Below, in pieces: positions 958 through 47,529 of a DNA stretch of 64,000 nucleotides. The position numbers and the translations under genes are program-made. This stretch comes from Propionibacteriales bacterium (lineage in GTDB: Bacteria; Actinomycetota; Actinomycetes; Propionibacteriales; Nocardioidaceae), in NCBI GenBank assembly GCA_038198775.1, contig JBBPZV010000043.1, positions 54,405 through 118,404 on the forward strand, in the 5' to 3' direction. Position 1 is the stretch's first letter. Every line of letters begins with the position of its first letter. Under the pieces are notes generated by a model. The model had not been told where the DNA came from. It saw nothing but the letters and a program-made list of their open reading frames with translations, and ran no database searches.

Positions 958-960
958 CGC

Positions 961-17978: not shown

Positions 17979-18022
17979 ACCGCTCACTGGCAAGATGAGT
18001 CCCGGCGGTCAGGAGGCGCTCA

Positions 18023-18406: not shown

Positions 18407-18409
18407 GCG

Positions 18410-18511: not shown

Positions 18512-18580
18512 CAGCCGGTCCCTGGAGTCTGGTTCAGCTGAGCTTGCGTCGGCCACGAGCCGACACTACCTTGCTGTCAC

Positions 18581-18601
18581 GGTACAGAACGGTTTCGTAC
18601 C
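18581..18601. promoter_or_regulatory. Imperfect palindrome GGTACAGAACGGTTTCGTACC, candidate TetR operator
   Basis: Lies immediately upstream of the RBS and ATG (18618) of tetR. The tetR-MFS genes are co-oriented with a 22-nt gap. Confidence 0.3.
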
Positions 18602-18617
18602 AACTGGAGGACCCCCC

Positions 18618-19232: not shown

Positions 19233-19254
19233 ACGACCGAAAGGAACGCCCCGC

Positions 19255-26190: not shown

Positions 26191-27180
26191 ATGCGTGTCC
26201 AGAGCGCCGTCACCGCGGTCTCATGGATCCCGAGCGAGGCCGTGACCGGCATCGCCTTCAAGGTGCCGTTCCGCGTCGGAGTCGCCCACTACGACGAGCC
26301 GCCGCCGGCCCGGCTCGGCGACCTCGCGGAGCTCGTCGCCGCCGACCGGTGCCGGTTCGTGAACCGGTTGCAGGCCTGGATCGAGGTGGACGACGGCCGG
26401 ATCACCGCCCACGGACAGTCCGGCGGCGGCCAGATCGGAGCCACCACGATGAGGGTCGGGCGCTCGGCGATGACGTTCGCGGCCGTCTCGCTGCCGGATC
26501 GTCAGGACACCGAGCGGCGCGGCGACACCGAGGTCCGTTTCGTGCAGACCTCCGGCGGTCGTACCGGCGTCCCCGCCCCCCGGCGGGTCTCGCACCCGCC
26601 GTACGTGCAGCTGAGCGCGCCCGTCGCCTGGACGACGCTGTCGTTGACATTGCGAGCGAACGGCTCGTCGGCGGGACACCTGGAGGGGGCCAGCCCGTTC
26701 CCCCGGCACTGGGTCTACGACGCACAGGGCGAGTTGGTGTCCAAGTCGGCCGTGATCAGCTATGCGACGTGGAGCACCACCGCCTTCGGCCGCCGTACAC
26801 CGTGGGGTGAGGAGGACTCGCCCGCCATGGTCAGCGCCGTCGAGTCGGCGCTGGAGCGGGAGCTGTCCCGGCAGGTGATGGCGGGGGCCCGACCCCGGAT
26901 CCGCCGCCTGGCGGCCGGGGCGACGCTGACAGAGCAGGGCCAGCCGGGCGAGGAGCTGTACGTACTGCTCGACGGGGTGCTACGTGTCGAGGTCGACCAG
27001 GAGCCGGTCGCCGAGGTGGGTCCGGGCGCGGTGCTCGGCGAGCGGGCTCTGCTGGAGGGCGGCCGCCGCACCTCGACCCTGCGCGCGGTCACCAAGTGCG
27101 CGGTTGCGGTCGCCGGCCGCGAGGCGATCGACGTGGCCGCGCTGCGAACTCTCGCGGAGGGGCACCGCCGCGAGGAGTGA
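26191..27180 (+). CDS. Protein with a C-terminal cyclic-nucleotide-binding domain. The N-terminal ~220 aa are of unknown function.
   Basis: GEELYVLLDGVLRVEV...GPGAVLGERALLEGGRRTSTLRAV matches the cNMP-binding beta-barrel/phosphate-binding-cassette pattern. Confidence 0.65.
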   Translation: MRVQSAVTAVSWIPSEAVTGIAFKVPFRVGVAHYDEPPPARLGDLAELVAADRCRFVNRLQAWIEVDDGRITAHGQSGGGQIGATTMRVGRSAMTFAAVSLPDRQDTERRGDTEVRFVQTSGGRTGVPAPRRVSHPPYVQLSAPVAWTTLSLTLRANGSSAGHLEGASPFPRHWVYDAQGELVSKSAVISYATWSTTAFGRRTPWGEEDSPAMVSAVESALERELSRQVMAGARPRIRRLAAGATLTEQGQPGEELYVLLDGVLRVEVDQEPVAEVGPGAVLGERALLEGGRRTSTLRAVTKCAVAVAGREAIDVAALRTLAEGHRREE

Positions 27181-27192
27181 GAGGACGGCCTG

Positions 27193-27696
27193 TCAGCGGC
27201 GCGGCGGCAGCCGGTGCAGCTCGACGCTGTGCAGCATGGCGTTCTCGGCCACCGCGCTCAGGTAGGTGCAGTACGGCTGGCGCCGCCGGTCCGTCGGCGA
27301 CCCGGGATTGAGCAGGCGCAGCCCGGTGGCTGTGGTCGTGTCCCATGGGATGTGGCTGTGCCCGAACACCAGCAGGTCCACGTCCGGGTATGCCGCGGCA
27401 CAGCGGCGCTCGCGCCCGCGGGCGGGTCCGGTCTCGTGCACGACCGCGAGGCGCAGCCCGTCGACGTCGGCGCGGGCGACCTCGGGCAGCCTCGCCCGCA
27501 ACGCCGGTCCGTCGTTGTTGCCGAAGACCGCCACCAACCGAGACGACCGCTCCAGGAACTCATCGAGCAGGCACCCGTCCACCCAGTCGCCGGCGTGGAC
27601 GACCACGTCCGCCTCGCCCACCGCGTGCCACACCTGCGGCGGCAGCTCACGGGCCCGCTTGGGCACGTGGGTGTCGGCGAGCAGGAGCAGCCTCAT
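27193..27696 (-). CDS. YfcE/MJ0936 family metallophosphoesterase
   Basis: MRLLLLADTH...HAGD...VFGNND...VHE...FGHSH motif series. ATGA overlap with the upstream ORF. Confidence 0.8.
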   Translation of the reverse strand: MRLLLLADTHVPKRARELPPQVWHAVGEADVVVHAGDWVDGCLLDEFLERSSRLVAVFGNNDGPALRARLPEVARADVDGLRLAVVHETGPARGRERRCAAAYPDVDLLVFGHSHIPWDTTTATGLRLLNPGSPTDRRRQPYCTYLSAVAENAMLHSVELHRLPPRR

Positions 27697-28130
27697 CCCA
27701 GCGGGGTCGGTTCCCCGCCGCCGAGGTTGTCCCCGGAGGCCCCCGCCTCGGCGACCTCCGGCGGGCCCTGCGTCGCCAGCTCCGGCTGGCCCGGCTTGCC
27801 GTGGGTGGCGTGCGTACGCCCGAACGTGCGGTGGTGCACGATCACGTTTCCCGAGCTGTGCTCGAGGTCGTTGTCGGTACCGAAGCCGAAGTAGTTGTGC
27901 TCCAGCTTCGACGACGCATAGACCCACCGCCGCTGGTCACGGCTGAACGGGCGCTCCTCGTCGTGGCCGGCCACGATGTACTGCCGCAGCTCCGGACCGA
28001 CCGCCTCCAGCAGGTAGCGGCCGTGCCCGATGATCGGGAAGTTCCGCAAGATCGCGTGCCGGCGTTGGGCGACGTCGTGGGCGGCCACGGCGGCGAGCGC
28101 CGCTACCGGGGCACCCCACAGCTTCTTCAC
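27693..28130 (-). pseudogene. N-terminal remnant of an FMN-binding glutamate-synthase-family protein
   Basis: HAILRNFPIIGHGRYLLEAVGPELRQYIVAGHDEERPFSRDQRRWVYASSKLEHNYFGFGTDND matches the N-terminus of this family. Family members are usually about 500 aa (from memory), but this ORF stops at 145 aa with an unrelated tail. Confidence 0.45.
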
Positions 28131-28156
28131 CGCGTCAGTCTGCCCGGTCGGCCCGC

Positions 28157-29578
28157 TCAGCGCAGCAGCGGAGCGTCGACCATCGCCCAGACCAGCCCGG
28201 ACCCGAGGCCAACGAGCAAGGCCGCCGCGGCAGCGACCAGGGCGGCCGCCTCCGCGTACGGCCGCGAGGCCCCGCTCGTCGCGCCGGCCCCGGACGGCGA
28301 GGACATGCCGAACGCCGGCCCCAGCCAGCGCAGGTAGTAGAACAGGCTGGCCACGGTGTTCACCGCCGCGACCACCGTCAGCCAGGGCAGGCCGCCGTCC
28401 CAGGCAGCCGCGAACGTCGTCAGCTTGCCGACGAACACCCCGGCCGGCGGCGTCCCCACCAGTCCCAGCAGGCTGACCAGCAGTGCCCCGGCCAGCCAGG
28501 GTCGACAGCTGCTCAGCCGCTCGTACGAAGCGAGGCTGCGCCGCTCCGGCAGCGCCGCCACGACTGCAAAGGCCGCCAGGTTCGTGGCGGCGTAGGCGGC
28601 CAGGTACAGCAGCAGCGCCGGGAGGGCGAGGTCGCTGCGGCCGGCGACCGCAACCGGCAACAACAGGTAACCGACCTGGCTGACCGTGGACCAGCCGAGC
28701 AGCCGGCGCGCGTCGGTCTGGGCGAAGGCGGCCAGGTTGCCCAGCGTCATGCTGGCCGCGGCCAGCAGCGCCATCAGCAGCGGCCAGTCGACGCTGGGAG
28801 GCAGGGCGTCCAGCAACCGGTAGGCCGCCACCAGAGCACCGATCTTGGGCACGGTGGTGAGGAAGGCGGCAACGGTGGTGCTCGCCGCCTGCGCGGCGTC
28901 GGGGACCCAGAAGTGCGCGGGCACCCCGCCGGCCTTGAACATCAGCCCCGCCACGACCGCGACGCCGCCGGTCGCCAGCGCAGCCGGCGGCTGGGCGGCC
29001 AGCTGCGTCGCCAGCTGCGAGTAGGCGGTGGCGCCCGCCAGCCCGGAGAGCACGCTCACCCCAAGCAGCATCGTGATGCCGAACAGCGCCCCGAGCAGGT
29101 AGGTCTTGAGCGCCGCCTCGGCGGCCGCCGCCGAACGCTCCAGCCCGACCAGCGCATAGAGCGGGATGCTGCCGAGCAGGTAGCCGACCGCCAGGATCAG
29201 CAGGTCGTTCGCTCCGGCCATCACCACCGCCCCCAACCCCGACAGCAGCAGCAGCGCGTACGTCTCGCTCTCCCGCGCCCGCCCGGCCAGCTCGTCGCCG
29301 CCCAGCCAGATCACCAGCAGCGTGGAGCCGATGACCAGCAGCCGGGCCGCCGTGGTCGCGGTGTCGGCCGCGTAGGTGCCGTCGAAGCCCAGCCGGTCAC
29401 CCCCGCCCGCCGGAACGGCCGCGATGCCAGCCGCCACCGCCAGGGCTGCCACCGCGATCAGGCGCGCCACGTACTGCCTACGCCGCGGCAGGAACGACCC
29501 GCTCAACAGCGCCGCCACCGCGCCGAGGAGGATCGCCGCCTCCGGCAGCAGCACCGCCGGCGCCATCGCGGTCCGCAC
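28157..29578 (-). CDS. nuoN: NuoN-like antiporter-type subunit of the complex-I-like module
   Basis: 473 aa polytopic protein. FKAGGVPAHFWVPDA ... STVSQVGYLL. Confidence 0.8.
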   Translation of the reverse strand: MRTAMAPAVLLPEAAILLGAVAALLSGSFLPRRRQYVARLIAVAALAVAAGIAAVPAGGGDRLGFDGTYAADTATTAARLLVIGSTLLVIWLGGDELAGRARESETYALLLLSGLGAVVMAGANDLLILAVGYLLGSIPLYALVGLERSAAAAEAALKTYLLGALFGITMLLGVSVLSGLAGATAYSQLATQLAAQPPAALATGGVAVVAGLMFKAGGVPAHFWVPDAAQAASTTVAAFLTTVPKIGALVAAYRLLDALPPSVDWPLLMALLAAASMTLGNLAAFAQTDARRLLGWSTVSQVGYLLLPVAVAGRSDLALPALLLYLAAYAATNLAAFAVVAALPERRSLASYERLSSCRPWLAGALLVSLLGLVGTPPAGVFVGKLTTFAAAWDGGLPWLTVVAAVNTVASLFYYLRWLGPAFGMSSPSGAGATSGASRPYAEAAALVAAAAALLVGLGSGLVWAMVDAPLLR

Positions 29579-29584
29579 GCGCGG

Positions 29585-31075
29585 CTACCGCCCCACCTGG
29601 TGCACGAGCGTGGCCGCCGCTGGCTCGATGATCCCCAGCAGTGGCCGCGGCAGCACACCGATGAACACCACCAGGGCCAGCAGCAACCCGGTCGACCAGG
29701 TCTCGGCCGGCGAGATGTCGACGAAGCCGGCGGACTGCCGGCGCAACGGCCCGGTGAACACCCGCTGCAGCGCCCGCAAGAACAGCGCCGCCGTCACCAC
29801 GATGCCCGGAAGTGCCACGGCCACCACCGGGGCGGCACCGATCCCCCCGGTGAAGATCTGGAACTCGGCGATGAAGCCGCTGAACGCCGGCAGGCCCAGC
29901 GAGGCGAACGCGGCCACGCCGAAGAAGGTGGCGTAGCGGGGCGCCACCTGCGCCAACCCTCCGTACCCGTCGATCTGGTAGCTGCGGTGCCGCTCCTGCA
30001 TCACCCCGGCGAGCAGGAACAGTGCTCCGGTGATCAGCCCGTGGCTGACCATCTGGGTGACCGCCCCCGTCACGGCGAGCTGCCGCGCCGCGGTGGTGTC
30101 CGGGGCGACGACTCCGGCCGCGCCGACCGCGAGCACGACGTATCCCATGTGGTTGACCGAGGTGTAGGCGATCATCCGCTTCAGGTCGCGTTGCGCGAGC
30201 GCCACCAGCGCGCCGTACAGCACCGAGACGATGCCGACCGCTATCAGCACCCAGGCCCAGGCACGCCAGGAGTCCGGCAGCATGGGCATCGCGATCCGGA
30301 CGAAGCCGTAGGTCCCCATCTTCAGCAGCACCCCGGCCAGCACCGCCGACCCGACCGCCGGGGCGTCGGTGTGCGCCGGCGGGAGCCAGGTGTGGAACGG
30401 GACCGTCGGTGTCTTCACGGCGAGCCCGAGCAGCAGTGCCGCAAGCACCAGCCCGCCGACCAACGGGCTGTCTCGCAGCGGCGGGTTCCGGGTCAGCGTC
30501 ACCATGTCGAACGTGTGCGGTGCCGCGGCGAGGTAGAGGCCGATGAAGCCGAGCAGCAGCGCCAGCGAGCCGAGGAAGGTGTAGAGGAAGAACTTCAGCG
30601 CCGAGCGGGCCGCGTCGCCGTGGCCCCAACCGGCGATGACGAAGTACATGCCGACGATCGACAGGTCGAAGAACACGAAGAACACCAGCAGGTCCTGCGC
30701 CGCGAACAGCCCGAGGCAGGTGGTCTGCAAGAACAAGTTCAGGGCCGCCTGCTGGCGCGGTCGCCGCTGTTCCCGCAATGCGTACACCGCACAGGCGACG
30801 AACACCACCCCGGTGAGCGCAAGCAGCGGCAGCGACAGCCCGTCCACGCCGACGTGGTAGCTGCTGCCGACGCTCGGGATCCAGCGCAGCTGCTCCTCGT
30901 ACGCCAGGCCGGGCCGGTCCGCGGTCGCGTACCGCACCCACACGTAGCCCAGCAGGCCGAGGTCCGCGGCCGTGACGGCGACCCAGGTCCAGCGGGCGGT
31001 GGCGTCCCCGATCCGCGGCACGGCCACGAGCGGCAGCGCGGCCGCCAGCGGCAGGAACACCACCAGGCTGAGCAC
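29585..31075 (-). CDS. nuoM: NuoM-like antiporter-type subunit
   Basis: 496 aa. VDGLSLPLLALT..., VKTPTVPFHTWLPPAHTDAP, AYTSVNHMGYV. Confidence 0.85.
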   Translation of the reverse strand: MLSLVVFLPLAAALPLVAVPRIGDATARWTWVAVTAADLGLLGYVWVRYATADRPGLAYEEQLRWIPSVGSSYHVGVDGLSLPLLALTGVVFVACAVYALREQRRPRQQAALNLFLQTTCLGLFAAQDLLVFFVFFDLSIVGMYFVIAGWGHGDAARSALKFFLYTFLGSLALLLGFIGLYLAAAPHTFDMVTLTRNPPLRDSPLVGGLVLAALLLGLAVKTPTVPFHTWLPPAHTDAPAVGSAVLAGVLLKMGTYGFVRIAMPMLPDSWRAWAWVLIAVGIVSVLYGALVALAQRDLKRMIAYTSVNHMGYVVLAVGAAGVVAPDTTAARQLAVTGAVTQMVSHGLITGALFLLAGVMQERHRSYQIDGYGGLAQVAPRYATFFGVAAFASLGLPAFSGFIAEFQIFTGGIGAAPVVAVALPGIVVTAALFLRALQRVFTGPLRRQSAGFVDISPAETWSTGLLLALVVFIGVLPRPLLGIIEPAAATLVHQVGR

Positions 31076-31076
31076 C

Positions 31077-32855
31077 TCAGCTCACCAGCCACAAGACGGC
31101 GACGGCGACGACCAGCACCGCCACCGCTTGGGTGTAGTACTGGTGCAGCTGTCCGGTCTGGGGGCGGCGGGCCAGCGCCGCCAGCGCTCGGGTGCCGCGC
31201 CCGAGCGCCGAGACCGCGCCGTCGACGACCCGGTCGTCGGCCAAGGCTGCGGTGTCGGCGAAGCGCAGTGTGGAGCCGGAGATGGCGACGACCCCGCCGT
31301 CGACCCAGCGGTCGTCGAACCGCGCCAACGCCGCCGCCAGGCCGAGCACCGGGTTCACGACCACGGCGTTCGCCGCTCGCTCCAGCCCCAGCCAGTGCCG
31401 GGCCCAGTCGGGCTCGGGGACGCCCCAGCGGTGGACCGCGGCCAACGTGCCCAGCGCGATGACCGCGGCGACTGCCAGCCCGACCGGGTCGGCGGTGGCC
31501 AGCGGTGGCAGTGCCAGCACTCCCAGGGTCGCCGCCCCGGTTGCGAGCACGGCGATGGGCACCGTACGCCCGGCACCGACCCGGTCCGCGCCGGCTGGCC
31601 GGGCGTCGTCACCCCACAGTACGAACAGCGCCTTGCCCGCATAGGCCGCCGAGAGCAGCGACGCCACGAGCCCGGCGGCATAGAGCGGGGCGGAGAACTC
31701 CCGGGCCGCGGAGAGCACGCCCTCCTTGGTGGCCCACAGGGACAGCGGAGGGGCGCCGGCCAACGCCAGCGCGGCGACGCCGAAGGCGACCCCGACCAGC
31801 GGCCACCGCCGGGCGGCGCCGCGCAGCGCGACCAGCCGCTTGGTCCCCAGGGCGGAAAGCCAAGCACCGGCGGCCAGGAACAGCGCGGCCTTCGTGGCCG
31901 CGTGAGCGACCAGCTGGGCGGTGCCTCCGGTGACCGCACCCACCCCGGCGGCAAGCACGACGAACCCGAGCTGCGCCGACGTGGACGCCGCCAGCAGCTG
32001 CTTGAGGTCCCGCTGCCCGACCGCGACCGCACCCAGCGCCACGGCGGTGAGCGCACCGGCCCAGGCGACCGTCACGTCCGCCCATCGCGTGCTGGCCAGC
32101 AGCGGCTGCACGCGCAACAGCAGGTAGCCGCCCATCGCGACCATGGCGGCCGAGTGCAGCAACGCGCTGACCGCGCTCGGCCCCTCCATGGCCCGCGACA
32201 GCCAGTAGCTGAACGGCAGCTGGGCCGCCTTGCCGAGTGCCGCCACCACGACACCGGCGCAGACGACGTCCCGCCACCCCGGGCTCGCCGCTGCCAGGCC
32301 GCTCAGATCCAGGCCGCTACCGCCGGCCAGCGCCGCACCCGCGGCCAGATACAGCCCGAGGTCCGCGGTCCGGGTGGTGAGGAACGCGACCGCGCCCGCG
32401 CCGACGCGCTCCTCGGACTGCCACTCGAAGCCGATCAGCGCGTACGACGTCGCTCCCATGACCTCCCAGGCGACCAGCAGGGCCGGCAGCGTGGTAGCGG
32501 TGGCGGTGAGCGTCACCGCCGCGGCGAAGATCAGCATCAAACCGTGGAAACGTGCCGGTGACCTGGCTATGTCGGCCGCGGCGAAGACCAGAACCAGTAG
32601 CGTGACCGCGGCGATCGTCGGCAGCACGGCGGCCGAGAGTGCGTCGACGCCCAGCCCGAACCCTGCCTGCGGAAGGAACGGCATCGACACCGCCGGCCGG
32701 GTCAGCGCCGCGCCGACTGCCAGGCCCAGGCCGACGGCTGCCGTCGCGAGCGACAGCGACCGCGCGACCCGGTCGGCGGCCGCGCCGCAAAGTGCCAGCC
32801 CCGCGCCCACCAGGGCGGGGAGCAGCACCAACAGCCCCAGGACCGCCGCGCTCAT
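31077..32855 (-). CDS. nuoL: NuoL-like antiporter-type subunit
   Basis: ATGA overlap with the nuoK stop. GKAAQLPFSYWLSRAMEGPSAVSALLHSAAMVAMG. The ORF-track 51-codon extension was rejected. Confidence 0.85.
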   Translation of the reverse strand: MSAAVLGLLVLLPALVGAGLALCGAAADRVARSLSLATAAVGLGLAVGAALTRPAVSMPFLPQAGFGLGVDALSAAVLPTIAAVTLLVLVFAAADIARSPARFHGLMLIFAAAVTLTATATTLPALLVAWEVMGATSYALIGFEWQSEERVGAGAVAFLTTRTADLGLYLAAGAALAGGSGLDLSGLAAASPGWRDVVCAGVVVAALGKAAQLPFSYWLSRAMEGPSAVSALLHSAAMVAMGGYLLLRVQPLLASTRWADVTVAWAGALTAVALGAVAVGQRDLKQLLAASTSAQLGFVVLAAGVGAVTGGTAQLVAHAATKAALFLAAGAWLSALGTKRLVALRGAARRWPLVGVAFGVAALALAGAPPLSLWATKEGVLSAAREFSAPLYAAGLVASLLSAAYAGKALFVLWGDDARPAGADRVGAGRTVPIAVLATGAATLGVLALPPLATADPVGLAVAAVIALGTLAAVHRWGVPEPDWARHWLGLERAANAVVVNPVLGLAAALARFDDRWVDGGVVAISGSTLRFADTAALADDRVVDGAVSALGRGTRALAALARRPQTGQLHQYYTQAVAVLVVAVAVLWLVS

Positions 32856-33154
32856 CCGGCCAGGTCCGCGGCCATGTCGGTCATGTCGGCGCCGCGGGAT
32901 CGATGCAGCAGCGTCGCCACCGCGAAGCCCATCGCCATCTCCACGGTCATCGCCGAGATCACTACCAGCAGCAGCACCTGACCGTCCGGGGACGGCGCCA
33001 GGAACCACCAGAAACCACCGGCGGCGAGGATCACGCCGTTGAGCATCAGCTCCAGACCCATCATCACCATCACGACGACCTGCTGGGACAGCGCGCCGTA
33101 GATGCCGACGGCGAACAGCGCCGCGGCCACGAGTAGGACCGTCTGCAACGTCAC
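32852..33154 (-). CDS. nuoK: NuoK-like subunit
   Basis: 100 aa with 3 TMS. GLELMLNGVIL...VVISAMTVEMAMGFA. GTGA overlap with the nuoJ stop. Confidence 0.8.
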   Translation of the reverse strand: MTLQTVLLVAAALFAVGIYGALSQQVVVMVMMGLELMLNGVILAAGGFWWFLAPSPDGQVLLLVVISAMTVEMAMGFAVATLLHRSRGADMTDMAADLAG

Positions 33155-33723
33155 CGGTTCACCCCTCCCGGCGCTGGGTCGTCCGCCGGCCGGCGACTCA
33201 GGTCGTCACCGAAGCGGTCGTAGCGGCCGCGAGCCGACGCCAGCACCACGGCCGCCACCAAGGTGGCGAACAGCACCGGGCTGACCGTGAGCATCACCAG
33301 CATCTTGGAGCCCATGATGGCGTTGCCGAGGGCTGTGGTGACGTCCACCGGGGGCGCTCCACGACGTGCCGGCCAGGGCACGAGCAGCGCCAATGCGGCG
33401 AGGCCGACGAACGTCGTGGCGGCGACGCCGGCCGCCCACCGGGGGGAGTGCACCATGTTCATCGGCATCAGGGCGGGGTTCATCCCCATGTACATGACCA
33501 TGAAGACGGCCATGATCGCCATCTCCATCACCATCATCAGGACGGTCACGATGCCGACGTACTCCAGGCCGAGCAGCAGCAACGCCAGCCCCACGGCGAC
33601 GAACGACACGGCCAGGGCGTACGTGGCCCGGGCCATCGAGTCGACCCGGAAGACCAGGGCACCGAAGCCGACAGCCGCCACCGACAGGACCCAGAACGCG
33701 ACGTCCACGAACACCGCGCTCAT
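33151..33723 (-). CDS. nuoJ: NuoJ-like subunit
   Basis: ATG at 33723 in an ATGA overlap with the nuoH stop. MSAVFVDVAFWVLSVAAVGFGALVF...YVGIVTVLMM. The first 239 codons of the ORF-track entry overlap nuoH and were rejected. Confidence 0.75.
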   Translation of the reverse strand: MSAVFVDVAFWVLSVAAVGFGALVFRVDSMARATYALAVSFVAVGLALLLLGLEYVGIVTVLMMVMEMAIMAVFMVMYMGMNPALMPMNMVHSPRWAAGVAATTFVGLAALALLVPWPARRGAPPVDVTTALGNAIMGSKMLVMLTVSPVLFATLVAAVVLASARGRYDRFGDDLSRRPADDPAPGGVNR

Positions 33724-34622
33724 CTGGCCACCGCGAGCACGGCAACCACCAGGACCTGCACCAGCACCAGCGGCAACAGCACCAGCCAGCCGACCTCCGC
33801 AAGGCGGTCCGCGCGCACCGACGGCGCGTGCCGGCGCGCTGCCACCAGGACCGCGAGCAGCGCCAGCGTCTTTGTCAGCGACCACGCCCACGCGGGCAGC
33901 AGCGGCCCGTTGCCGCCACCGAGGAACAGCGTGGCCCCGAACGCGGCACCGGCGGCGAGCAGCGCGTAACGCCCGGCCAGCACCAGCAGCCGGTCCACCC
34001 CGGAGAGCTCCTCCAGGACGCCGCCGGCCACGTCGCTCCCGGCCGGGTGCCCGAGCGGACCCCAGACGGAGAAGGCGACGACGCCGGTCAGGAACACCAG
34101 GAGGGCCACCGGCATCGAGACCACGAACCACAGCGGTTGCTGGGCGCGGACCACGTCGGCGATCCGCAGGCTGCCGGCCGCGACGGCCGGGGTGGTGATC
34201 GCGAACATCAGCGGCAGCTCGTACGACAGCGCCTGGGCGAGGAAGCGATAGCCGCCGACCAGCGAGTGCACGCTGTTCGGCCCCCAGCCGGCCAGCCAGA
34301 CCATCGCCCAGACCACGACGTCCATGGCGTTGAACCACACCACCCCCACGGAGAGGTCGGCCACCGTCCACCGCCCGAGCGGGACCACGACCACCATCAG
34401 CAGTGCGACCACCAGCAGGCCGGCCCCGCCGATGCGCCACAGCGGCCGGTCGGCGGCGACGGTGCGGCGCCGGCGCTGCCGCACCAACCGAGCCACCTCG
34501 ACCAGCGGTGAGCAGCGCGCCGCCAGCACGCCGTCCAACCCGGCGCCTGCCCCGGCGACCGCGAACAGCACCAGCGCGGCCACCACAACCCAGCCCACAC
34601 CCACCTGGCCGACCTCACCCAT
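33720..34622 (-). CDS. nuoH: NuoH-like subunit (divergent)
   Basis: GWGPNSVHSLVGGYRFLAQALSYELPLMF ... TLFLGG ... RRHAPSVRADRL resembles NuoH/ND1, but several normally acidic loop positions differ. Confidence 0.7.
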   Translation of the reverse strand: MGEVGQVGVGWVVVAALVLFAVAGAGAGLDGVLAARCSPLVEVARLVRQRRRRTVAADRPLWRIGGAGLLVVALLMVVVVPLGRWTVADLSVGVVWFNAMDVVVWAMVWLAGWGPNSVHSLVGGYRFLAQALSYELPLMFAITTPAVAAGSLRIADVVRAQQPLWFVVSMPVALLVFLTGVVAFSVWGPLGHPAGSDVAGGVLEELSGVDRLLVLAGRYALLAAGAAFGATLFLGGGNGPLLPAWAWSLTKTLALLAVLVAARRHAPSVRADRLAEVGWLVLLPLVLVQVLVVAVLAVAR

Positions 34623-35628
34623 GCGCGGACTCCCGAACCGAGACGACGGAGTCCGGCTCGTGCGCGGCCACGACCAGCCGGGCGGCGCCCAGGTCAAGAC
34701 CGGCCACCAGGTCGGGCAGTGTCTCGGTCACCGAACCGGGCGGCGCGACCCTGGGATCGGTCTCCCGCTCGCCGCGGGCAGCGGCCGCGGCTTCGGCCAA
34801 CCACCGCACCAGACGCCGGTGGACATCCCCCGGGGGCAGGTCCCGCAGCAGCCAGCGCAGCGAGACCGACCGCTCGACCCTGCGCCGCAGCCGGTCGAGG
34901 CGGGATGCGCAGTCCGACATCGGTGCACCGGTCAGCAGCTGGTCCCTGACGTGCCGCGCCGAGTCGGCGGCCGCGTCCCAACCTGCGACCGCCAGCAGCC
35001 GGTAGCTGGCGTCGCACCGCATCACCGCTCGGCGGCGGTCCCCGGCCGGTGCTCCCGTGGGGTCCTCCGGTTCCGCCGCCGGCAGCATCCGAGCCTGCGC
35101 CGCCACGACGACGTCGCCCTGGAGCCGGCAGTCGAGCCGAAGCCCCGCCGGCCAGTGCGGCAGCACCGGCCCCAGCGGGACGTGCAGCACGTCGAGGTCG
35201 ACGCCGTCACGGTCTGGCCCCTCGCCGGCCAGCTGGATACCGGCCGGGGTCATCTCGTCCTCGTCGGCCGCGTTCACCGCGTACGACGTGCGGCTGCGGG
35301 CGTCCCGGCGCTGCGACCCGGCGTCGAGCAGCTCCGCGGCCAGGGAGTCCAGCAACGCGTCCGCGTTCGCCGGCGTCGTGAGCACCCCGCGGGCACGCGG
35401 ACCCGGGAGCTGCGCCCACACCCGGTCGGCGGCGCCCCGCAGCTCCGCTCCCGGCCGCCCGCAGACGACGAGGGCGTCGGCGTCGGCCGCTGACCTCGCC
35501 AGCCGCCAGGAACGGGCGAAGACCGCTTGTTCCAGCGACATCCGCACCGTGGGCCACTCCGGGACCGCGACGACCAGCAGGTGGACGCCTCGTACCGCGA
35601 GCCGTCCGACTGCCTCGCTCAGGCCCAT
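34615..35628 (-). CDS. Hypothetical protein. By-eye resemblance to a Cys-less NuoB-like N-terminal half fused to a truncated NuoD-like segment.
   Basis: Occupies the nuoB/C/D slot between nuoA and nuoH, with overlaps on both sides. ADALVVCGRPGAELRGAADRVWAQLPGPRARGVLTTPANADA resembles the NuoB core. LGPVLPHWPAGLRLDCRLQGDVVVAA resembles the NuoD N-terminal motif. Confidence 0.4.
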   Translation of the reverse strand: MGLSEAVGRLAVRGVHLLVVAVPEWPTVRMSLEQAVFARSWRLARSAADADALVVCGRPGAELRGAADRVWAQLPGPRARGVLTTPANADALLDSLAAELLDAGSQRRDARSRTSYAVNAADEDEMTPAGIQLAGEGPDRDGVDLDVLHVPLGPVLPHWPAGLRLDCRLQGDVVVAAQARMLPAAEPEDPTGAPAGDRRRAVMRCDASYRLLAVAGWDAAADSARHVRDQLLTGAPMSDCASRLDRLRRRVERSVSLRWLLRDLPPGDVHRRLVRWLAEAAAAARGERETDPRVAPPGSVTETLPDLVAGLDLGAARLVVAAHEPDSVVSVRESAHG

Positions 35629-35969
35629 CGCAACGCGCCCTCGCGCCATGCCCACACCACCGCGAGCATCAGCAGACCGAGGAACCCGAACATCTCCACG
35701 ACGGCCTCGGCTCCCACGTCGGCGACCACGACCGCCCAGGGGTACATGAACAGCATCTCGACGTCGAAGGCCAAGAAGACCAGCGAAAGCAGATACCAAC
35801 GAGCGTGGTAGCGCGACAGGGCGTGTTCGGTGGGCTCGTTGCCGGACAGGAACGGGAGGACCTCCAGCGGCTCCCGGTGGACACCGAGCACGAGGCCGGT
35901 CGCGTAGACGCCTCCGACCGCCCCGACTCCGACGCCGAGCATCGACAACAGCCCGAGGTAGGCCTCCAT
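35619..35969 (-). CDS. nuoA: NuoA-like subunit
   Basis: 116 aa. FLSGNEPTEHALSRYHARWYLLSLVFLAFDVEMLFMYPWA. Its ATG shares one nucleotide with the copA TGA (TGATG). Confidence 0.85.
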   Translation of the reverse strand: MEAYLGLLSMLGVGVGAVGGVYATGLVLGVHREPLEVLPFLSGNEPTEHALSRYHARWYLLSLVFLAFDVEMLFMYPWAVVVADVGAEAVVEMFGFLGLLMLAVVWAWREGALRWA

Positions 35970-38215
35970 CAGCGGCTCCCCCCGACGTCGGCCGGGTCCG
36001 AGCGCAGCGACACCGGCCGGAACCGGCGCAGCCGCAGACTGTTGGAGACCACGAAGACCGACGAGAACGCCATCGCGGCGCCGGCGATCAACGGGTTCAG
36101 CAGCCCGGAGACCGCCAGCGGCAGCGCGGCCACGTTGTAGCCGAAGGCCCAGACCAGGTTTCCCTTGATCGTTCGCAACGTCCGTCGGGACAGCGCGATG
36201 GCGTCCGCCGCCGTCCGCAGGTCTCCCCGGACCAGGGTCAGGTCGCTGGCTTCGATCGCGACCTGGGTGCCGGTTCCCATCGCGATACCGAGATCGGCCT
36301 GGGCCAGAGCCGGTGCGTCGTTGATGCCATCCCCCACCATGGCGACGACACAGCCACTGCGCTGAAGGCTGCGTACGGCTTCGACCTTCGCCGCCGGCAG
36401 CACCTCCGCGATCACCTCGGCGATGCCGACCTCGCCCGCAACGCTCGCGGCGGCACGCCGGTTGTCACCGGTCAGCAGCACGGGACGCAGGCCCAGTGAC
36501 CTCAGCTCGGAGACGGCCTGCGCGCTGGTCGGCTTCACGGTGTCGGCGACCACGAGCAGACCGCGCGCGACCCCGTCCCAGCCGACGACGACTACGGTGT
36601 GGCCGGCCGACTCCGCCGCCTCCCGGTGCGGCTCCAGGTCCGCCGGGAGCGTGGCGGCACCAGCCCGCCATTGCGCCCGCCCGACGCTGACCCGATGCCC
36701 AGCGACGACTCCGTCGACCCCCAGCCCCGAGGTGGCCAGGAACTGCCCGGCGGGAGGAAGGTCGCCGAACCTGTCGTGGGCGGCGGCCGCGACGGCGGCC
36801 GCGATCGGGTGCTCGGAGGCGACCTCGACCGCGCCGGCGAGCCGCAGCACCTCCGCGGCGCTCTCGCCCGCCGCCGGAACCACGTCGACCAGCCGCATCC
36901 GGCCCTCGGTGACGGTGCCGGTCTTGTCGAGGACGATCGTGTCGACCCGCCGGGTCGACTCGAGGACCTGGGGGCCCTTGATGAGCACGCCTATCTGGGC
37001 GCCTCGTCCGGTGCCGACCAGCAGGGCGGTCGGGGTGGCCAGCCCGAGCGCGCAGGGGCAGGCGATGATCAGCACCGCCACCGCCGCACCGAACCCGACC
37101 TGCGGATCGGCACCGACGGCGAGCCAGCCCAGCAGCGTGAGCACGGCCAGAGCCATGACCACCGGCACGAAGATCGCCGAGACGCGGTCGGCGAGGCGCT
37201 GCACCGGCGCCTTCCCCGACTGCGCCTGCTCGACGAGCCGCGCCAGCTGCGCCAAGGAGGTCTCGGTCCCGACGCGGGTCGCGCGGACGACGAGCCGACC
37301 GCCGGCGTTCACCGCGGCCCCGACCACCGCGTCGCCCGGCGCGACCTCCACGGGCACGGGTTCACCGGTGAGCAGGCTGGTGTCGACCGCCGAGGAGCCC
37401 TCGACGACCTCCCCGTCCGTTGCGACCTTCTCCCCCGGTCGCACCACGAAGACGTCGCCCACAGCCAGCGCCTCGATCGGGATCCGCTGTTCGCGGCCGG
37501 ACCGGAGCACTGCGACGTCCTTCGCTCCCAGCTCGAGCAGGGCGCGCAGCGCCGCGCCGGAGCGGCGCTTGGCGCGTGCCTCGAAGTAGCGCCCGGAGAG
37601 GATGAAGACCGTGACCGCCGAGGCCACCTCCAGGTAGATGTGGTCGGAGGCACCGGTCGAGGGGACGAGGTCCAGGCGCATGCGCATCCCGGCGGCCCCG
37701 GCATCCCCGAGGAACAGCGCGTACAGCGACCAGCCGTACGCCGCCAGCACACCGAGGCTGATCAGGCTGTCCATGGTGGCGCTCAGGTGCCGGGCGTTGG
37801 CCCAGGCGGCCCGGTGGAAGGGCAGGGCGCCCCAGGTCACCACTGGGGTGGCGAGGGCCAGCGAGAGCCACTGCCAGAAGTCGAACTGCAGGAAGGGGAG
37901 CATAGCCAGCAGCACCACCGGCACCGCGAGCACGACCGAGACCAGCAGTCGGCGACGGAGCTCGCGCGCCTCACCACCCGGGTCGGGCTCCCCCGGCGCG
38001 GTGACCGGCTGGGGGAGCCTCGCGGTATAGCCGGTGGCCTCGACAGTGGCGATGGCGTCCGCGACGCTGACGCCCGCAGGCAGCGTGAGGGTGGCCTTCT
38101 CGGTGGCGTAGTTGACGCTGGCGTCGACGCCGGGCAGGCGCTTCAGCTTCTTCTCTATCCGGGCGGCGCACGAGGCGCAGGTCATGCCGCCGATCTGCAG
38201 GTCGACGGTGCTCAT
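35969..38215 (-). CDS. copA: Copper-translocating P1B-type ATPase
   Basis: [24 protein letters not shown] (HMA domain), CPC ([13 protein letters not shown]), [17 protein letters not shown] overlap with the copZ stop. The 192-codon ORF-track extension was rejected. Confidence 0.92.
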
Positions 38216-38427
38216 GCCAGCTGATAACCCGCCTCTTCGACGGCGTCGCCCACGACCTCTCGGTCCAAAGGCGCCTGGCTGCTCACGCGCACCGTGGACG
38301 CCGCGTCCACGACGAGATCCACGTGGACGGCGAGGACACCCTCGATCGCCGAAAGCTCCCCCACGACGGCGTTGACGCAGTGGCTGCAGGTCATGCCGTC
38401 GACGGCGTACGTCGTGGTGATGGACAC
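38212..38427 (-). CDS. copZ: Copper chaperone, heavy-metal-associated domain
   Basis: 71 aa, with [15 protein letters not shown] (MxCxxC). Confidence 0.88.
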
Positions 38428-38439
38428 GAAATGCTCCTC

Positions 38440-38721
38440 TCAGGACCGGACCAGGCGGGCAATGGCCTGCTGGGCCTCTCGTACCTTGACGTCGGCCTCC
38501 GCACCACCCTTGGCGGCTGCCGCCACCACGCAGTGCGCCAGGTGGGCGTCGAGCAGGCTGAGCGAGAAGGACTGCAGCGCTCGGGTGGCGGCGGAGACCT
38601 GCGTCAAGATGTCGATGCAGTAGTCGTCGGCCTCCACCATCCGCTGCAGGCCACGCACCTGTCCCTCGATGCGACGGAGCCGGGCCAGGTGTGCCTGGCG
38701 GTCTTCGCTGTAGCCCTGCAC
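38440..38721 (-). CDS. csoR: CsoR/RcnR family metal-sensing transcriptional repressor
   Basis: GTG at 38721 preceded by [22 protein letters not shown]...[11 protein letters not shown]...H..HC pattern (C-H-C ligand set). Confidence 0.85.
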
Positions 38722-38736
38722 GGCGCCTCCTACACT

Positions 38737-38756
38737 TACGGTACCCCTGTACGGTA
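38737..38756 (-). promoter_or_regulatory. CsoR-box-like operator TACCGTACAGGGGTACCGTA (minus strand)
   Basis: Lies 16 nt upstream of the csoR GTG. It contains the 13-bp perfect palindrome CTGTAC-G-GTACAG (38748..38760). It resembles the G/C-tract-centred TACC...GGTA CsoR operators recalled from B. subtilis copZA and Streptomyces. Confidence 0.55.
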
Positions 38757-38821
38757 CAGGCACACCCCCCCTGCCCAGCATCCGTTCCCATGAGCCCGCC
38801 CTACGGCAGTGTCCGCCCCCG

Positions 38822-39679
38822 TCAGGTCCGGGCTCTCACCTGGATGCGGTCCTCGACGGTGCGAACGTCGTAGCCGGGCTGCGGCGCGGTCGCGGGTCCC
38901 CTGGCGACGCTGCCGTCTCGGAGGCGGAACGTGCTGCCGTGCCACGGACAGACCACGCAACCCTCGCGGAGCTCCCCCTCGTCGAGTGGTCCTTCGTAGT
39001 GGCTGCACACGGCGTGCAGCGCGTAGAGCTCACCCTCGGTGTGCGCCAGCAGGATCGGCTCGCCGCCGACATCGGCGCGCAGCAGCTGCCCCTCCGACAG
39101 GTCTGTCGCCGCGGCGGCGTCCGTCCAGTCGAGTGGTGCCTTGTCCACACCGTAGTTGCGGTTCACCCCGACGGCCTCGCTGTAGCTCAGGTGGCCACCC
39201 AGGTAGCCGCCCAACGAGACCGTGGTGGCGCCGAGCAGCGCCAGCCGCCTCCCCCGCCGGTGGTCACCGCGGGCGCGCGCGAGCCAGCTGGCGCTGTACA
39301 GCAGCGTGCTGGCGACGTTGAACGCGGCGTGCGCCAGACCGACCCGTTTGGGCTGGCGGTCCAGACCCAGCTCCGACCAGTCCGCCAGCCCCGCAGCTGC
39401 GGTTGCCGGGACGCTGAGAATCCCCGCCCCCACGAGTCGCTGCGCCGCCTCGCGAGCTCCCGGGCCGCCCAGGTAGTCCAGCAGCGAGGCCCCCGACCAG
39501 AGCCCGATCGGCATCGTGACCAGCAGCGGGTGGACCGGATGGCCGAGCCAGCGCCCGTGAAGGGCATCCTTGACCGGTCCCCGCGGCACCACGGCCGTCA
39601 CGACCCCCGCGACCGCGTCGACTGCCGGGTCAAGGGCTTGCGCCTGCTCCAGCCTGCCGGTCAGCTTCGACCACAACAT
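38822..39679 (-). CDS. DUF2231-type membrane domain fused to a Rieske [2Fe-2S] domain
   Basis: N-terminus LHGRWLGHPVHPLLVTMPIGLW. C-terminus CSHYEGPL...CVVCPWHGSTF (CxH...CxxH). Confidence 0.75.
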   Translation of the reverse strand: MLWSKLTGRLEQAQALDPAVDAVAGVVTAVVPRGPVKDALHGRWLGHPVHPLLVTMPIGLWSGASLLDYLGGPGAREAAQRLVGAGILSVPATAAAGLADWSELGLDRQPKRVGLAHAAFNVASTLLYSASWLARARGDHRRGRRLALLGATTVSLGGYLGGHLSYSEAVGVNRNYGVDKAPLDWTDAAAATDLSEGQLLRADVGGEPILLAHTEGELYALHAVCSHYEGPLDEGELREGCVVCPWHGSTFRLRDGSVARGPATAPQPGYDVRTVEDRIQVRART

Positions 39680-39755
39680 CGGTGCTCCTCGACGCTCGTT
39701 GGGATTGGGCCGTCGTACCCTGCGGTCACCGGTCTAACCCACGTCAGGCCGGGTC

Positions 39756-41450
39756 TTAGTGCGGGCGGAAGGTCGCCGCGGCGGTCTGGAACACGGGCCG
39801 GCTGGCGCTCTCCCAGGTGGCGTCCGGGCCGGACATGTACAGCGCGAAGCCTCGCGGGTCGGTGACGATTCCTCGGTTGAGCACGTGGATGGTGCCACCC
39901 GGGGCCTGCCAGGTGAACTCCCAGTCGGCCGCCGGATACCGGTAGTCGACCGGTGCGATGCTGATGCGCTGGTAGCCGGGCAGCCGCGCGGCGACCGCCG
40001 GTTCCGCGTCGAGCCAGGCCTGCTCGGCACTGGGTTCGGCCTGCGGCTGCTGGTCGACCCGCAGGAACTGGGTGCCGTCCGGTGACACGTAGTCCACCCG
40101 GGTGGGTGCCGCCAGTCGGCGGGTCCATCCGTCGGGTACGGCGACGGTGAAGCCGAGCGGGTCGTGCACTCGCTGGTAGCCCGCCGGGACCCCGCGACCG
40201 GGACGGGCCTCCGGCGCTGCCGGTGAGGTGCTGGCTGGCGGAGACGGTGAGGCAGAGGCAGAGGGGTTGCTGGCCGACGGGCGGCGGGTAGGGGCCCGAC
40301 CCGGGTTGCCCTGCCCCGTCGCGCCGGTGCCGGACGTCGAACCGCTGCGCTGGGTGGCCGTCGTCGAGCCCGGGTCACCTCCGCCGAGCTGGCCGGCGAG
40401 GACGAGACCCCCTCCTAGCAGCACCACCACGGCTGCCAGCAGCAGCAGCGGTCGTCCCAGCTGGCGCTCGGGCGTCTCGGGCGCCGCCACGAAGAAGTCC
40501 TCGAGCTGCGACGGCGGCGCCACCGGCGCCATCACCGGGGCGACCGGGAGGTGGATCGTCGTGGTGTCCCCGTCGGGCGCCGGGACGACCAACGGAGGCG
40601 GCGGTGCGGTCACCGCCTGCATCAGCAACTGCCGGGCCGGGCGGCTGCGAAGTCGGCGGTCGGGCTCCTTGTCCAGCAGTCCGAGCAGCACGCTGCGCAG
40701 CGGCCCTTCGACGTGTGGAGGCGGGACCTCGTCGGCGAGGACGGCGGTGATGGTTCCCATCGTCGTCTCGGCGCGAAACGGCGGTCTCGCCTCCAGTGCC
40801 GCGTACAGCGTCGCCCCCAGCGACCACAGGTCCGCCGGTGGCCCGATGTGCTTGGCGCGCAACCGCTCCGGCGACATGTAGGTGGGCGACCCGACCAGGA
40901 GCCCGGTACTCGTCAACGTGACGTCGCTCTCGCTGGTGGCGATCCCGAAGTCGGTGAGCACCACCCGGTCCCCGTCGAGCAGCACGTTGCTGGGTTTGAC
41001 ATCACGGTGCAGCACGCCGGCTGCATGCGCGGCCTCGAGCGCGTCGATCAGGGCCACCCCGATCGCCGCCGCCCGTCCCGGCTCGACGGGGCCGTCCGCA
41101 TCGATGACCTGCGCGAGGCTGGGCGCCGCTACCAGCTCCATCACGATGCACGGCTGTCCGTCGGCCGACACCACGTCGTAGACGGTGACGATCGCGGGAT
41201 GGCTGAGGCGGGCGGTCAGACGCGCCTCCCGCATGGTGCGTTCGCAGCGGATGTCACGCTCCTCCGGTGAGATGCCGGGCGGGAACCGCACCTGCTTGAC
41301 CGCGACTGGACGGCCGAGCGTCTCGTCGCGAGCCTGCCAGACCTCACCCATTCCGCCACGCCCGAGCAGCCGCTCGAGCCGGTAGCGGCCGGCGAGCAGC
41401 CGAGCCTCCTCCGCCACCCCGTCGTCGTACCCGTTTCCCGGGGTGGTCAC
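39756..41450 (-). CDS. Ser/Thr protein kinase with one TM segment and an extracytoplasmic C-terminal domain of unknown family
   Basis: GTGA overlap with the upstream esterase stop. GRGGMGEVW..AVK..HRDVKPSNVLL..DFG..SPE. Then a Pro/Ser-rich linker, a TM segment (LLLLAAVVVLLGGGLVLA) and a ~170-aa C-terminal domain. Confidence 0.88.
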   Translation of the reverse strand: MTTPGNGYDDGVAEEARLLAGRYRLERLLGRGGMGEVWQARDETLGRPVAVKQVRFPPGISPEERDIRCERTMREARLTARLSHPAIVTVYDVVSADGQPCIVMELVAAPSLAQVIDADGPVEPGRAAAIGVALIDALEAAHAAGVLHRDVKPSNVLLDGDRVVLTDFGIATSESDVTLTSTGLLVGSPTYMSPERLRAKHIGPPADLWSLGATLYAALEARPPFRAETTMGTITAVLADEVPPPHVEGPLRSVLLGLLDKEPDRRLRSRPARQLLMQAVTAPPPPLVVPAPDGDTTTIHLPVAPVMAPVAPPSQLEDFFVAAPETPERQLGRPLLLLAAVVVLLGGGLVLAGQLGGGDPGSTTATQRSGSTSGTGATGQGNPGRAPTRRPSASNPSASASPSPPASTSPAAPEARPGRGVPAGYQRVHDPLGFTVAVPDGWTRRLAAPTRVDYVSPDGTQFLRVDQQPQAEPSAEQAWLDAEPAVAARLPGYQRISIAPVDYRYPAADWEFTWQAPGGTIHVLNRGIVTDPRGFALYMSGPDATWESASRPVFQTAAATFRPH

Positions 41451-47492: not shown

Positions 47493-47529
47493 CATTTCCG
47501 TCAGCCGGTCGTGACCGACCGATCGGTTA

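Follow-up and report, generated by a model that had tools for sequence, protein, structure and literature searches.

A 64,000-nucleotide (nt) stretch of a Propionibacteriales genome (assembly GCA_038198775.1, contig JBBPZV010000043.1, positions 54,405 to 118,404; hereafter the window) carries a copper-efflux operon, csoR-copZ-copA, that continues directly into eight genes for a complex-I-like membrane module, nuoA-BD-nuoH-J-K-L-M-N. BD denotes a 337-aa protein predicted to be a fused and shrunken NuoB-NuoD. The module is a widespread, unannotated variant of complex I tied to copper homeostasis, and a new function for it is plausible but unproven. With a confidence a little short of even, we read it from its sequence as a copper-induced, redox-cofactor-free, proton-coupled exporter of Cu(I), possibly also of Ag(I), that would work beside the ATPase CopA.

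Gene content of the cop-nuo run

The window has a G+C content of about 72%, and between 28157 and 38781 its minus strand holds eleven open reading frames (ORFs) with the third-position G+C bias typical of real genes; all coordinates in this section refer to that strand. The order is csoR, copZ, copA, nuoA, BD, nuoH, nuoJ, nuoK, nuoL, nuoM and nuoN. The csoR stop is followed after a 12-nt gap by the copZ start, copZ and copA overlap in an ATGA (38212-38215), and the copA stop and the nuoA start are joined in a TGATG at 35967-35971, sharing the single base 35969. Further along, nuoA and BD overlap by 10 nt and BD and nuoH by 8 nt, the junctions nuoH/J, J/K and K/L read ATGA, GTGA and ATGA, and gaps of 1 nt and 6 nt lie between nuoL and nuoM and between nuoM and nuoN. 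A first-pass annotation of the letters had described this eleven-gene run with the same overlaps and gaps, and on re-deriving every junction we found all values to agree. Given the overlapping reading frames, csoR through nuoN would be expected to be co-transcribed.

The first three genes have the make-up of a CsoR-regulated cop operon, with a CsoR-family repressor, a CopZ bearing MxCxxC and a P1B-1 ATPase bearing CPC, as seen from Pfam and NCBIfam matches and from motifs in the translations. The csoR gene (38440..38721) has its likely start at the GTG at 38721, with GGAGG before it, and the longest ORF extends to 38781. Its product matches Pfam PF02583 (Trns_repr_metal) at E = 1.6e-27 and shows the Cys...His-x3-Cys ligand pattern; the NCBIfam RicR model gives 130 bits, under its 175-bit cutoff. 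The copZ product (38212..38427) is an HMA copper chaperone with an MTCSHC motif (Pfam HMA, E = 2.6e-11), matched by the NCBIfam CopZ models below their cutoffs. CopA (35969..38215) is a Cu(I)-ATPase of the P1B type that has a single HMA domain at its N-terminus and carries a CPC motif; it reaches 527 bits against TIGR01511 (cutoff 397) and 590 bits against TIGR01525, and contains the Pfam E1-E2_ATPase, Hydrolase and HMA domains.

All seven membrane subunits that follow (NuoA, H, J, K, L, M and N) match their Pfam families above the gathering cutoffs, so that the profile check recommended with the first-pass annotation supports each family assignment, although among the NCBIfam equivalog and subfamily Nuo models only TIGR01972 for NuoM attains its cutoff. 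The nuoA-like gene (35619..35969) matches Oxidored_q4 at E = 5e-25, and the nuoH-like gene (33720..34622) matches NADHdh at E = 3.8e-44. The nuoJ-like product (33151..33723) matches Oxidored_q3 at E = 1.1e-11 and was aligned to Escherichia coli NuoJ and T. elongatus NdhG, and the nuoK-like product (32852..33154) matches Oxidored_q2. The last three subunits are of the antiporter type and match Proton_antipo_M: the nuoL-like product (31077..32855) scores 236 bits with the NCBIfam NuoL model against 168 bits with MrpA, the nuoM-like product (29585..31075) scores 479 bits with TIGR01972 (cutoff 263.8), and the nuoN-like product (28157..29578) matches the Pfam family at E = 4.9e-49 and has Paracoccus NuoN as its best PDB match (E = 6.8e-48). 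These junctions and family assignments bear out the view that the cop operon continues directly into a membrane module resembling complex I.

No NuoC, E, F, G or I was found in the run or among the other called genes of the window that were scanned with Pfam, and no separate NuoB or NuoD gene was found among the latter, which agrees with the absences first noted by eye. A complete nuo operon downstream of copA was rejected for lack of NuoC, E, F, G and I in the run. A Mrp antiporter was likewise rejected, because NuoH and NuoA are present, no ORFs of the MrpE, F or G type occur and the Nuo models outscore the Mrp models. The profile check for either of these systems was thus negative on both counts. 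As the module has no Fe-S ligands and no flavin- or NADH-binding subunits, it cannot be an NADH:quinone oxidoreductase.

The BD protein

The BD gene (34615..35628) encodes a NuoB-like domain (about 35293-35628), a linker (about 35245-35292) and a NuoD-like domain (34615-35244). The ORF matches no Pfam family, PF01058 included, and no NCBIfam model, and the 363 homologs detected, from many actinobacterial genera, are all unnamed or 'hypothetical'. An exhaustive profile search returned 1219 representatives at 50% identity, 963 of them at E <= 1e-10, and nearly all of the 150 matches listed span most of the profile length.

An AlphaFold2 model built with 98 homologs has a pLDDT of 89.4 and a pTM of 0.87. 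Its Foldseek neighbours in the PDB are almost exclusively chains of the NuoD family (49-kDa/NDUFS2, NdhH, MbsL and E. coli NuoCD) and of the NuoB family (PSST/NDUFS7, NdhK and MbhJ), with Foldseek probabilities up to 1.0. The NuoB relationship can also be seen in sequence, where the BD family profile matches Thermus thermophilus Nqo6 (NuoB) at E = 1.7e-5 in an alignment that covers only SPADADVLVVCGxPG...VWxQLPGPRAR, the Nqo6 segment ending in WEQMPDPK. The NuoD-like part, of about 210 aa, is detectable through its fold only.

The family conserves just two cysteines, C56 and C167, and by eye neither falls at an N2 ligand position; the four-Cys N2 ligand set of NuoB is missing, as is any full-length NuoD ORF between nuoA and nuoH. 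The confident model thus predicts a reduced fusion of NuoB and NuoD that has lost the cysteines of cluster N2. The first-pass annotation had seen here a degenerate NuoBD as the sole remnant of the peripheral arm. The Nqo6 match and the structural model agree with a fused NuoB/NuoD-like protein in that position, but 'degenerate' does not do justice to a protein that is conserved and well folded.

The linker between the two domains is variable. In most homologs it is rich in His, Met and Asp, often with MDHG repeats, and of 98 homologs 57 have at least three His and 69 at least three Met in it. On M. avium and M. intracellulare plasmids, RefSeq labels the BD homolog a 'DUF4779 domain-containing protein' (locus L083, pMAH135, 12007-13257); we suspect this label to be a spurious low-complexity match to the Asp/His/Met-rich linker and not true homology.

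Residues kept and changed in the membrane subunits

The family alignment shows the proton-pumping subunits to be largely intact. The NuoL-like subunit keeps the TM5 Glu, TM7 Lys, TM8 His, TM11 Lys and TM12 Lys along with the C-terminal lateral-helix region. In the NuoM-like subunit both Lys and the TM12 Glu are kept and the acidic residue of TM5 is an invariant Asp, not Glu, while the NuoN-like subunit keeps its three Lys and has Leu in place of the TM5 Glu. The NuoK-like subunit keeps both membrane Glu, set within Met-rich helices, the NuoA-like subunit keeps its FDVE motif and is moderately enriched in Met, and the NuoH-like subunit keeps its SYE motif.

In NuoH two loops are changed. The TM1-2 loop is shortened relative to E. 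coli NuoH, and the TM5-6 loop, PFDxPEAExELxxGYxxEYSG in the canonical protein, reads PLGHPAGSDVAGGVLEELSG in the module. In complex I these two loops line the quinone cavity.

The NuoJ-like subunit has a Met-rich TM3 and following loop (LMMVMEMAIMAVFMVMYMGMNPALMPMNMVH, 33448..33540, minus strand), for which the family consensus is LMMVMEMAxMAVxMVMxMGMNPALMPMxMVH with most columns at least 95% identical across 74 loci. Methionine makes up 9.7% of the NuoJ-like, 9.6% of the NuoK-like and 4.6% of the NuoA-like family, against 1.4-2.2% of the NuoH-, L-, M- and N-like families and 1.8% of neighbouring proteins; the canonical chains E. coli NuoJ and T. elongatus NdhG have 2.9% and 2.5%. Met thioether and His imidazole ligands are typical of proteins that handle Cu(I), such as CusA/B/F, CopC/PcoC, CueO and Ctr1. 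Judged from these residues, the antiporter-like half of the module looks functional, and the half corresponding to the link between quinone site and pumps in complex I appears rebuilt with thioether and imidazole ligands.

In phmmer searches the NuoH of the window scored 115 bits with E. coli NuoH and 58 bits with M. smegmatis NuoH, and its NuoN scored 167 bits with Paracoccus NuoN and 130 bits with M. smegmatis NuoN. Both subunits score closer to the proteobacterial than to the M. smegmatis chains. The module is therefore probably not a recent copy of a host nuo operon, and its origin may lie outside the complex I lineage of the host.

Distribution of the eight-gene module

Genomes were scanned at one per species. 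A relative of BD is encoded in 409 species-representative genomes; 80 loci were fetched and searched by tblastn with the window proteins, and 66 of these were informative for the gene neighbourhood. Wherever the contig allows, the order nuoA-BD-H-J-K-L-M-N is identical and on one strand in all 80 loci, which come from many actinobacterial orders and whose membrane subunits are 50-89% identical to those of the window. The hosts include Cryobacterium, Arthrobacter, Kocuria, Kineococcus, Modestobacter, Pseudonocardia and Nocardioides, and further Kribbella, Micromonospora, Salinispora, Nocardiopsis, Streptomyces carminius, Rhodococcus and Mycobacterium. Serinicoccus kebangsaanensis and M. avium TH135 are also among the carriers.

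Sixteen actinobacterial plasmids also encode the BD protein, and mobilisation or conjugation is predicted for the majority; the set includes M. avium pMAH135 and its relatives, plasmids of M. intracellulare, Gordonia and Rhodococcus, and Arthrobacter sp. FB24 plasmid 1. All three plasmid contexts inspected carry the module, although the annotation of the P. autotrophica plasmid splits BD into pieces. Plasmid pPSED01 of P. dioxanivorans was not among the BD plasmid matches. With its eight genes in fixed order, its fused BD and the conserved Met-rich motifs of NuoJ and NuoK, the window belongs to this family, and nuoA-BD-HJKLMN is an autonomous, selected unit.

A probable relative of the module has been mentioned once in the literature. 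Cruz-Morales et al. 2013 (PMC3698927) describe, within a copper-rich mobile island of Streptomyces lividans 66, an eight-gene nuo-like cluster, SLI1027-SLI1034, to which one sentence is given as a "duplicate NADH-ubiquinone reductase"; the same context is reported from a Pseudonocardia plasmid, and Cu(II) reduction is suggested by analogy with NDH-2. From its gene count and context SLI1027-1034 is probably of the same family as the window module, and our survey finds the module on Pseudonocardia plasmids and in a Streptomyces genome. According to the paper, strain S. lividans TK24 lacks the island.

Copper genes beside the module

The csoR-copZ-copA set lies directly upstream of nuoA on the same strand in three other loci (L026, L036 and L041), copA alone in L060, L068 and L073, and copZ alone in L031, L037 and L047. 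Between copA and nuoA there is an ATGA overlap in L036, a spacing of 9 nt in L060 and one of 94-118 nt in L026, L041 and L068. The survey of related genomes that the first-pass annotation called for thus finds the copA-nuoA adjacency in six further loci (L026, L036, L041, L060, L068 and L073), and it is not peculiar to this assembly. The coupling emphasised there does recur, but its tight form is a minority arrangement, at roughly 6 of the 66 informative loci, and what is conserved is the eight-gene module.

Other arrangements of copper genes are seen as well. Divergent orientation of csoR-copZ-copA and nuoA is found in L077 and on the P. autotrophica plasmid, an HMA-ATPase pair is divergent on M. 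avium pMAH135, and on Arthrobacter FB24 plasmid 1 a cupredoxin-like protein, a DUF305 protein and a multicopper oxidase precede the module on one strand. Clustering of the neighbours returned DUF305 proteins, Cys-rich four-helix DUF326 proteins, multicopper oxidases, DUF3105 proteins, copA, copZ and csoR as recurrent, along with a histidine kinase/response regulator pair and an ArsR-family regulator whose gene mostly lies just upstream of nuoA in divergent orientation. The remaining upstream neighbours looked heterogeneous by eye. Neighbour cluster 6, which consists of antisense ORFs over the BD gene, was left out as a gene-calling artefact.

Counting copA, copZ, csoR, DUF305, DUF326, DUF3105 and multicopper oxidase as copper families, their share of genes is 15.2% within 3.2 kb upstream of the module against 2.2% at 6.4-9.6 kb (Fisher p = 1e-4), and 23 of the 66 informative loci have a copper-family gene within 6 kb. 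The copper link is general, and the fusion to copA is not.

Operators and promoters

A candidate operator of the CsoR/RicR type, TACCGTACAGGGGTA, is found at 38742..38756, read on the minus strand, in the 100-nt gap upstream of csoR and 20 nt ahead of the likely GTG start at 38721. In loci L041, L077, L036 and L072 the palindrome TACCCC-N3-GGGGTA stands upstream of csoR at a comparable position, and L026 has a near-match; relative to it the right half of the window box is perfect and the left half has 2 mismatches. The candidate CsoR box placed by eye at 38737-38756 encloses this site.

A consensus scan of 27000-40000 revealed no sigma-70-like promoter. The two terminator-like matches in the same interval, no more than the 2.2 expected by chance, both fall within coding sequence, and no Rfam family matched in the scanned region.

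In six loci without an intervening cop gene (L004, L021, L032, L048, L054 and L071) CsoR operators of the ATACCC-N3/5-GGGTAT type lie 47-156 nt upstream of nuoA itself, an example of the extended palindrome being ATACCCCCTGGGGGTA, and CsoR-type operators are also found upstream of copZ-nuoA in L031, L037 and L047. In total the motif gave only 34 matches in 1.42 Mb of locus sequence. In L068, a Nocardioidaceae metagenome-assembled genome, the 118-nt spacer between copA and nuoA (about 9541-9660) holds GGTACGGGGGTACC, similar to the window box GTACCGTACAGGGGTACCGTA; certain lineages may thus have an internal operator or promoter before nuoA.

CsoR repressors are released from DNA at high Cu(I). 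CsoR control of the whole run, as first proposed, is plausible and gains independent support from the CsoR-type operators directly ahead of nuoA in other lineages, though for the window it is not proved. Depending on the lineage, the module appears to be placed behind a CsoR-type operator, by an ArsR-family regulator gene or by a two-component pair.

Proposed function

The gene content and junctions, the conservation of the family, the missing Fe-S ligands, the Met enrichment and the association with copper genes and CsoR-type operators are direct observations; from them we infer co-transcription, the transported substrate, the direction of transport and the induction by copper. In the mechanism that we propose, the CsoR-family repressor would bind Cu(I) and leave the operator upstream of csoR, and derepression would give one long message for csoR-copZ-copA and the eight-gene, complex-I-derived membrane machine. 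The BD cap would take up cytoplasmic Cu(I) and hand it into the former quinone cavity and the 'E-channel', which would now be lined by thioethers, and proton influx through L, M and N would drive Cu(I) out of the cell. The module would then be a Cu(I)(/Ag(I))/H+ antiporter alongside the ATP-driven CopA, Mrp-like in principle and with a soft-metal substrate.

A number of observations weigh against a copper exporter. About half of the surveyed loci have no recognisable metal gene or operator nearby, and the window's own BD linker is short and has no His. The individual Foldseek E-values of the BD model are weak (0.03-0.3), as may be expected for a two-domain query. Leu in TM5 of NuoN and Asp in TM5 of NuoM are family-wide, and as both replace a Glu, pumping may be altered. 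The Met enrichment could serve another purpose, for example oxidant buffering or packing. In the one copper RNA-seq experiment published for a strain that seems to carry such a module, S. lividans 66, SLI1026 was induced 3.6-fold and the adjacent SLI1027-1034 are absent from the list of genes induced at least 2-fold (PMC3698927), which is mild evidence against strong induction of the cluster in that strain.

Among the alternatives, the module might be a copper-independent, Mrp-like antiporter that moves Na+, K+ or H+, stabilises pH or membrane potential under metal stress and travels with metal islands only since it is useful there. The residues kept in L, M, N and K are indeed common to Mrp and complex I, there are no redox cofactors, and a recognisable copper gene is lacking near about half of the loci. 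We still hold this to be rather unlikely, as Mrp is without NuoH and NuoA and requires MrpE, F and G, which are absent here, and as the Met-rich helices of J and K, the His/Met-rich linker of BD and the CsoR operators at nuoA would go unexplained. Copper could also be the substrate and move the other way, the module being a device for import, insertion or sequestration that supplies Cu to exported cuproenzymes or buffers it at the membrane. The Met and His motifs are silent on direction, and multicopper oxidases, cupredoxin, DUF305 and DUF326 storage-type proteins as neighbours would suit such a role. Detoxification is favoured over import because the module is translationally coupled or co-regulated with the exporter CopA under a CsoR-type repressor, one released at high Cu(I), and we judge import or sequestration improbable.

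That the module works with quinol as a copper redox enzyme, reducing Cu(II) or oxidising Cu(I) with copper bound in the BD/NuoH cavity in place of the Fe-S chain, was in part suggested for SLI1027-1034 as a 'copper-reducing NADH-ubiquinone reductase' (PMC3698927). The retention of NuoH and of a NuoD-like fold, the two parts that make up the quinone site of complex I, and the multicopper oxidases that frequently adjoin the module would agree with this, whereas the lack of an NADH-binding module, the rewritten quinone-cavity loops of NuoH and the lack of a predicted redox cofactor site speak against it. Also the quinone-binding His position of NuoD appears not to be conserved when the BD family alignment is read by eye against the canonical motif. 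NDH-2 is a flavoenzyme unrelated to complex I. It was to NDH-2 that the published analogy was drawn, and all in all we give the redox enzyme little credence. That the module stands in for the usual membrane arm upon copper damage and binds the canonical peripheral arm, with NuoB, C, D, E, F, G and I encoded elsewhere, is in our view very unlikely. All seven membrane subunits are there, and in S. lividans the cluster was taken to duplicate the main system (PMC3698927), but BD fills the positions of NuoB and NuoD, the docking loops of NuoH are changed, and the phmmer scores of NuoH and NuoN favour proteobacterial over M. smegmatis chains, as would not be the case for a recent host paralogue. The loss of the peripheral arm and the failure of all curated profiles to detect BD might finally point to a decaying, non-functional nuo remnant that neighbours the cop genes by chance in this assembly. 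Intact frames, membrane subunits 50-89% identical across many orders, the identical order in 80 loci, carriage on mobilisable plasmids and a confident BD model (pLDDT 89) leave this next to no probability, and the conservation data effectively refute it.

Beyond proton-coupled Cu(I) export as such, the module might be the first member of the complex I/Mrp superfamily to be repurposed for transition-metal transport: an exporter of Cu(I)/Ag(I) driven by the proton motive force (pmf), with a Met-lined path through NuoA/J/K/H and BD as a copper-collecting cap, spread on plasmids and islands in Actinobacteria including clinical plasmids of the Mycobacterium avium complex. This fuller picture we regard as possible but somewhat doubtful. 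If true, the coupling machinery of complex I can run without an electron-transfer chain and be coupled to a different substrate. The module would then offer a natural 'membrane arm plus minimal cap', a minimal system for how events at the quinone site drive distant proton pumps. To our knowledge no proton-driven Cu(I) exporter has been described in monoderm bacteria, and one would be added here beside CopA. Its presence on mobilisable plasmids of Mycobacterium avium, M. intracellulare, Rhodococcus, Gordonia and Arthrobacter may be relevant to Cu/Ag tolerance in environmental and clinical settings. Even if the idea of transport is wrong, a large unannotated family with a clear structural assignment and a testable regulatory link has been found.

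Other features of the window

Two minus-strand ORFs follow nuoN, and their membership in the transcription unit is uncertain. The first, of 145 aa (27693-28130), starts 26 nt after nuoN and has no Pfam match; it is joined by an ATGA overlap to a metallophosphoesterase gene (27193-27696). The adjacency of the two (27193..28130) to the module is not conserved in the other loci. By eye the first roughly 100 residues of the 145-aa ORF are similar to the N-terminal part of an FMN-binding protein of the glutamate-synthase family, and the ORF may therefore be what is left of a truncated gene; a full-length copy of such a protein adjoins the module in another locus.

Directly upstream of csoR, and set apart from it by the 100-nt gap that contains the operator candidate, a minus-strand gene (38822-39679) encodes a DUF2231 membrane domain fused to a Rieske [2Fe-2S] domain, after which comes a Ser/Thr kinase gene at 39756-41450. 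Neighbour clustering did not return the DUF2231-Rieske gene as a recurrent companion of the module in other loci.

Positions 1-9683 and 9684-19366 of the window form a 100% inverted repeat that has no spacer and begins at base 1. The gene calls are mirrored accordingly (TetR, MscL, a SAF-domain protein, a PIG-L deacetylase, a GT4 glycosyltransferase, a penicillin amidase and 5-FTHF cyclo-ligase). The repeat is most likely a fold-back assembly artefact at the contig end, with a hairpin replicon end as a possible alternative. Three small proteins with RTX calcium-binding repeats, at 47501-48175 and 56661-58172, are unrelated to the copper/nuo finding and sit in a polysaccharide-biosynthesis region with a sugar transferase, a flippase-like protein, GT2/GT4 glycosyltransferases, sulfotransferases and a deacetylase.

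Comparison with known systems

The first-pass annotation knew of no described coupling of copA to nuo genes. In the searchable literature we found no cop operon that continues into nuo-like genes, so that part stands, but the cluster itself has probably been mentioned (PMC3698927). Apart from that mention the searchable literature gave no description of a complex-I-derived copper system or of a CsoR regulon that includes nuo genes. Nor does it report the fusion in BD, the lost N2 cluster, the Met-rich J and K, the CsoR boxes or the breadth of distribution, which thus seem to be new relative to it; the S. lividans report mentions neither the absence of the peripheral arm nor BD as a fusion, the richness of subunits in Met or the CsoR operators.

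Every one of the seven membrane subunits of complex I has a homolog in the module, and the gene order A, H, J, K, L, M, N is the canonical one. NuoL retains its lateral-helix region, most of the proton-pump Lys and Glu are present, and a NuoB-/NuoD-like fold is encoded between nuoA and nuoH. The module differs from complex I in having no NuoC, E, F, G or I and in its 337-aa fusion of NuoB and NuoD without the N2 cysteines. The quinone-cavity loops of its NuoH are rewritten, its J, K and A are Met-rich, and its NuoN has Leu in TM5. It further adjoins metal-sensor genes and CsoR-type operators, not respiratory regulators. Streptomyces nuoA2-N2 is a second partial nuo cluster without nuoC, E, F and G beside a complete nuoA-N; it presumably has separate NuoB2 and NuoI2 bearing Fe-S motifs, neither of which the window module has.

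Hydrogenase-type complexes of the Mbh, Mbs, Ech and FHL kind are represented among the fold matches of BD by MbsL and MbhJ, but BD lacks the ligand cysteines for Fe-S or NiFe centres and the module has no NuoI- or NuoC-like genes. Mrp resembles the module as a redox-independent assembly of NuoL/M/N-like and NuoK-like subunits, though it has MrpB, E, F and G and is without NuoH, NuoA or a NuoB/D-like cap. Mrp is thought to exchange a cation for protons, and our working model for the module would be the same with Cu(I) as the cation.

On the copper side, the window has in common with CsoR/RicR cop operons the csoR-copZ-copA gene set, and its candidate operator, with one perfect and one imperfect half, may be of their GC-rich palindromic type (TACCC...GGGTA). 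CusA of the CusCBA system is a Met-rich membrane protein that moves Cu(I) at the expense of the proton gradient. The module as proposed would likewise be Met-rich and pmf-driven, with no sequence relationship to the RND pumps.

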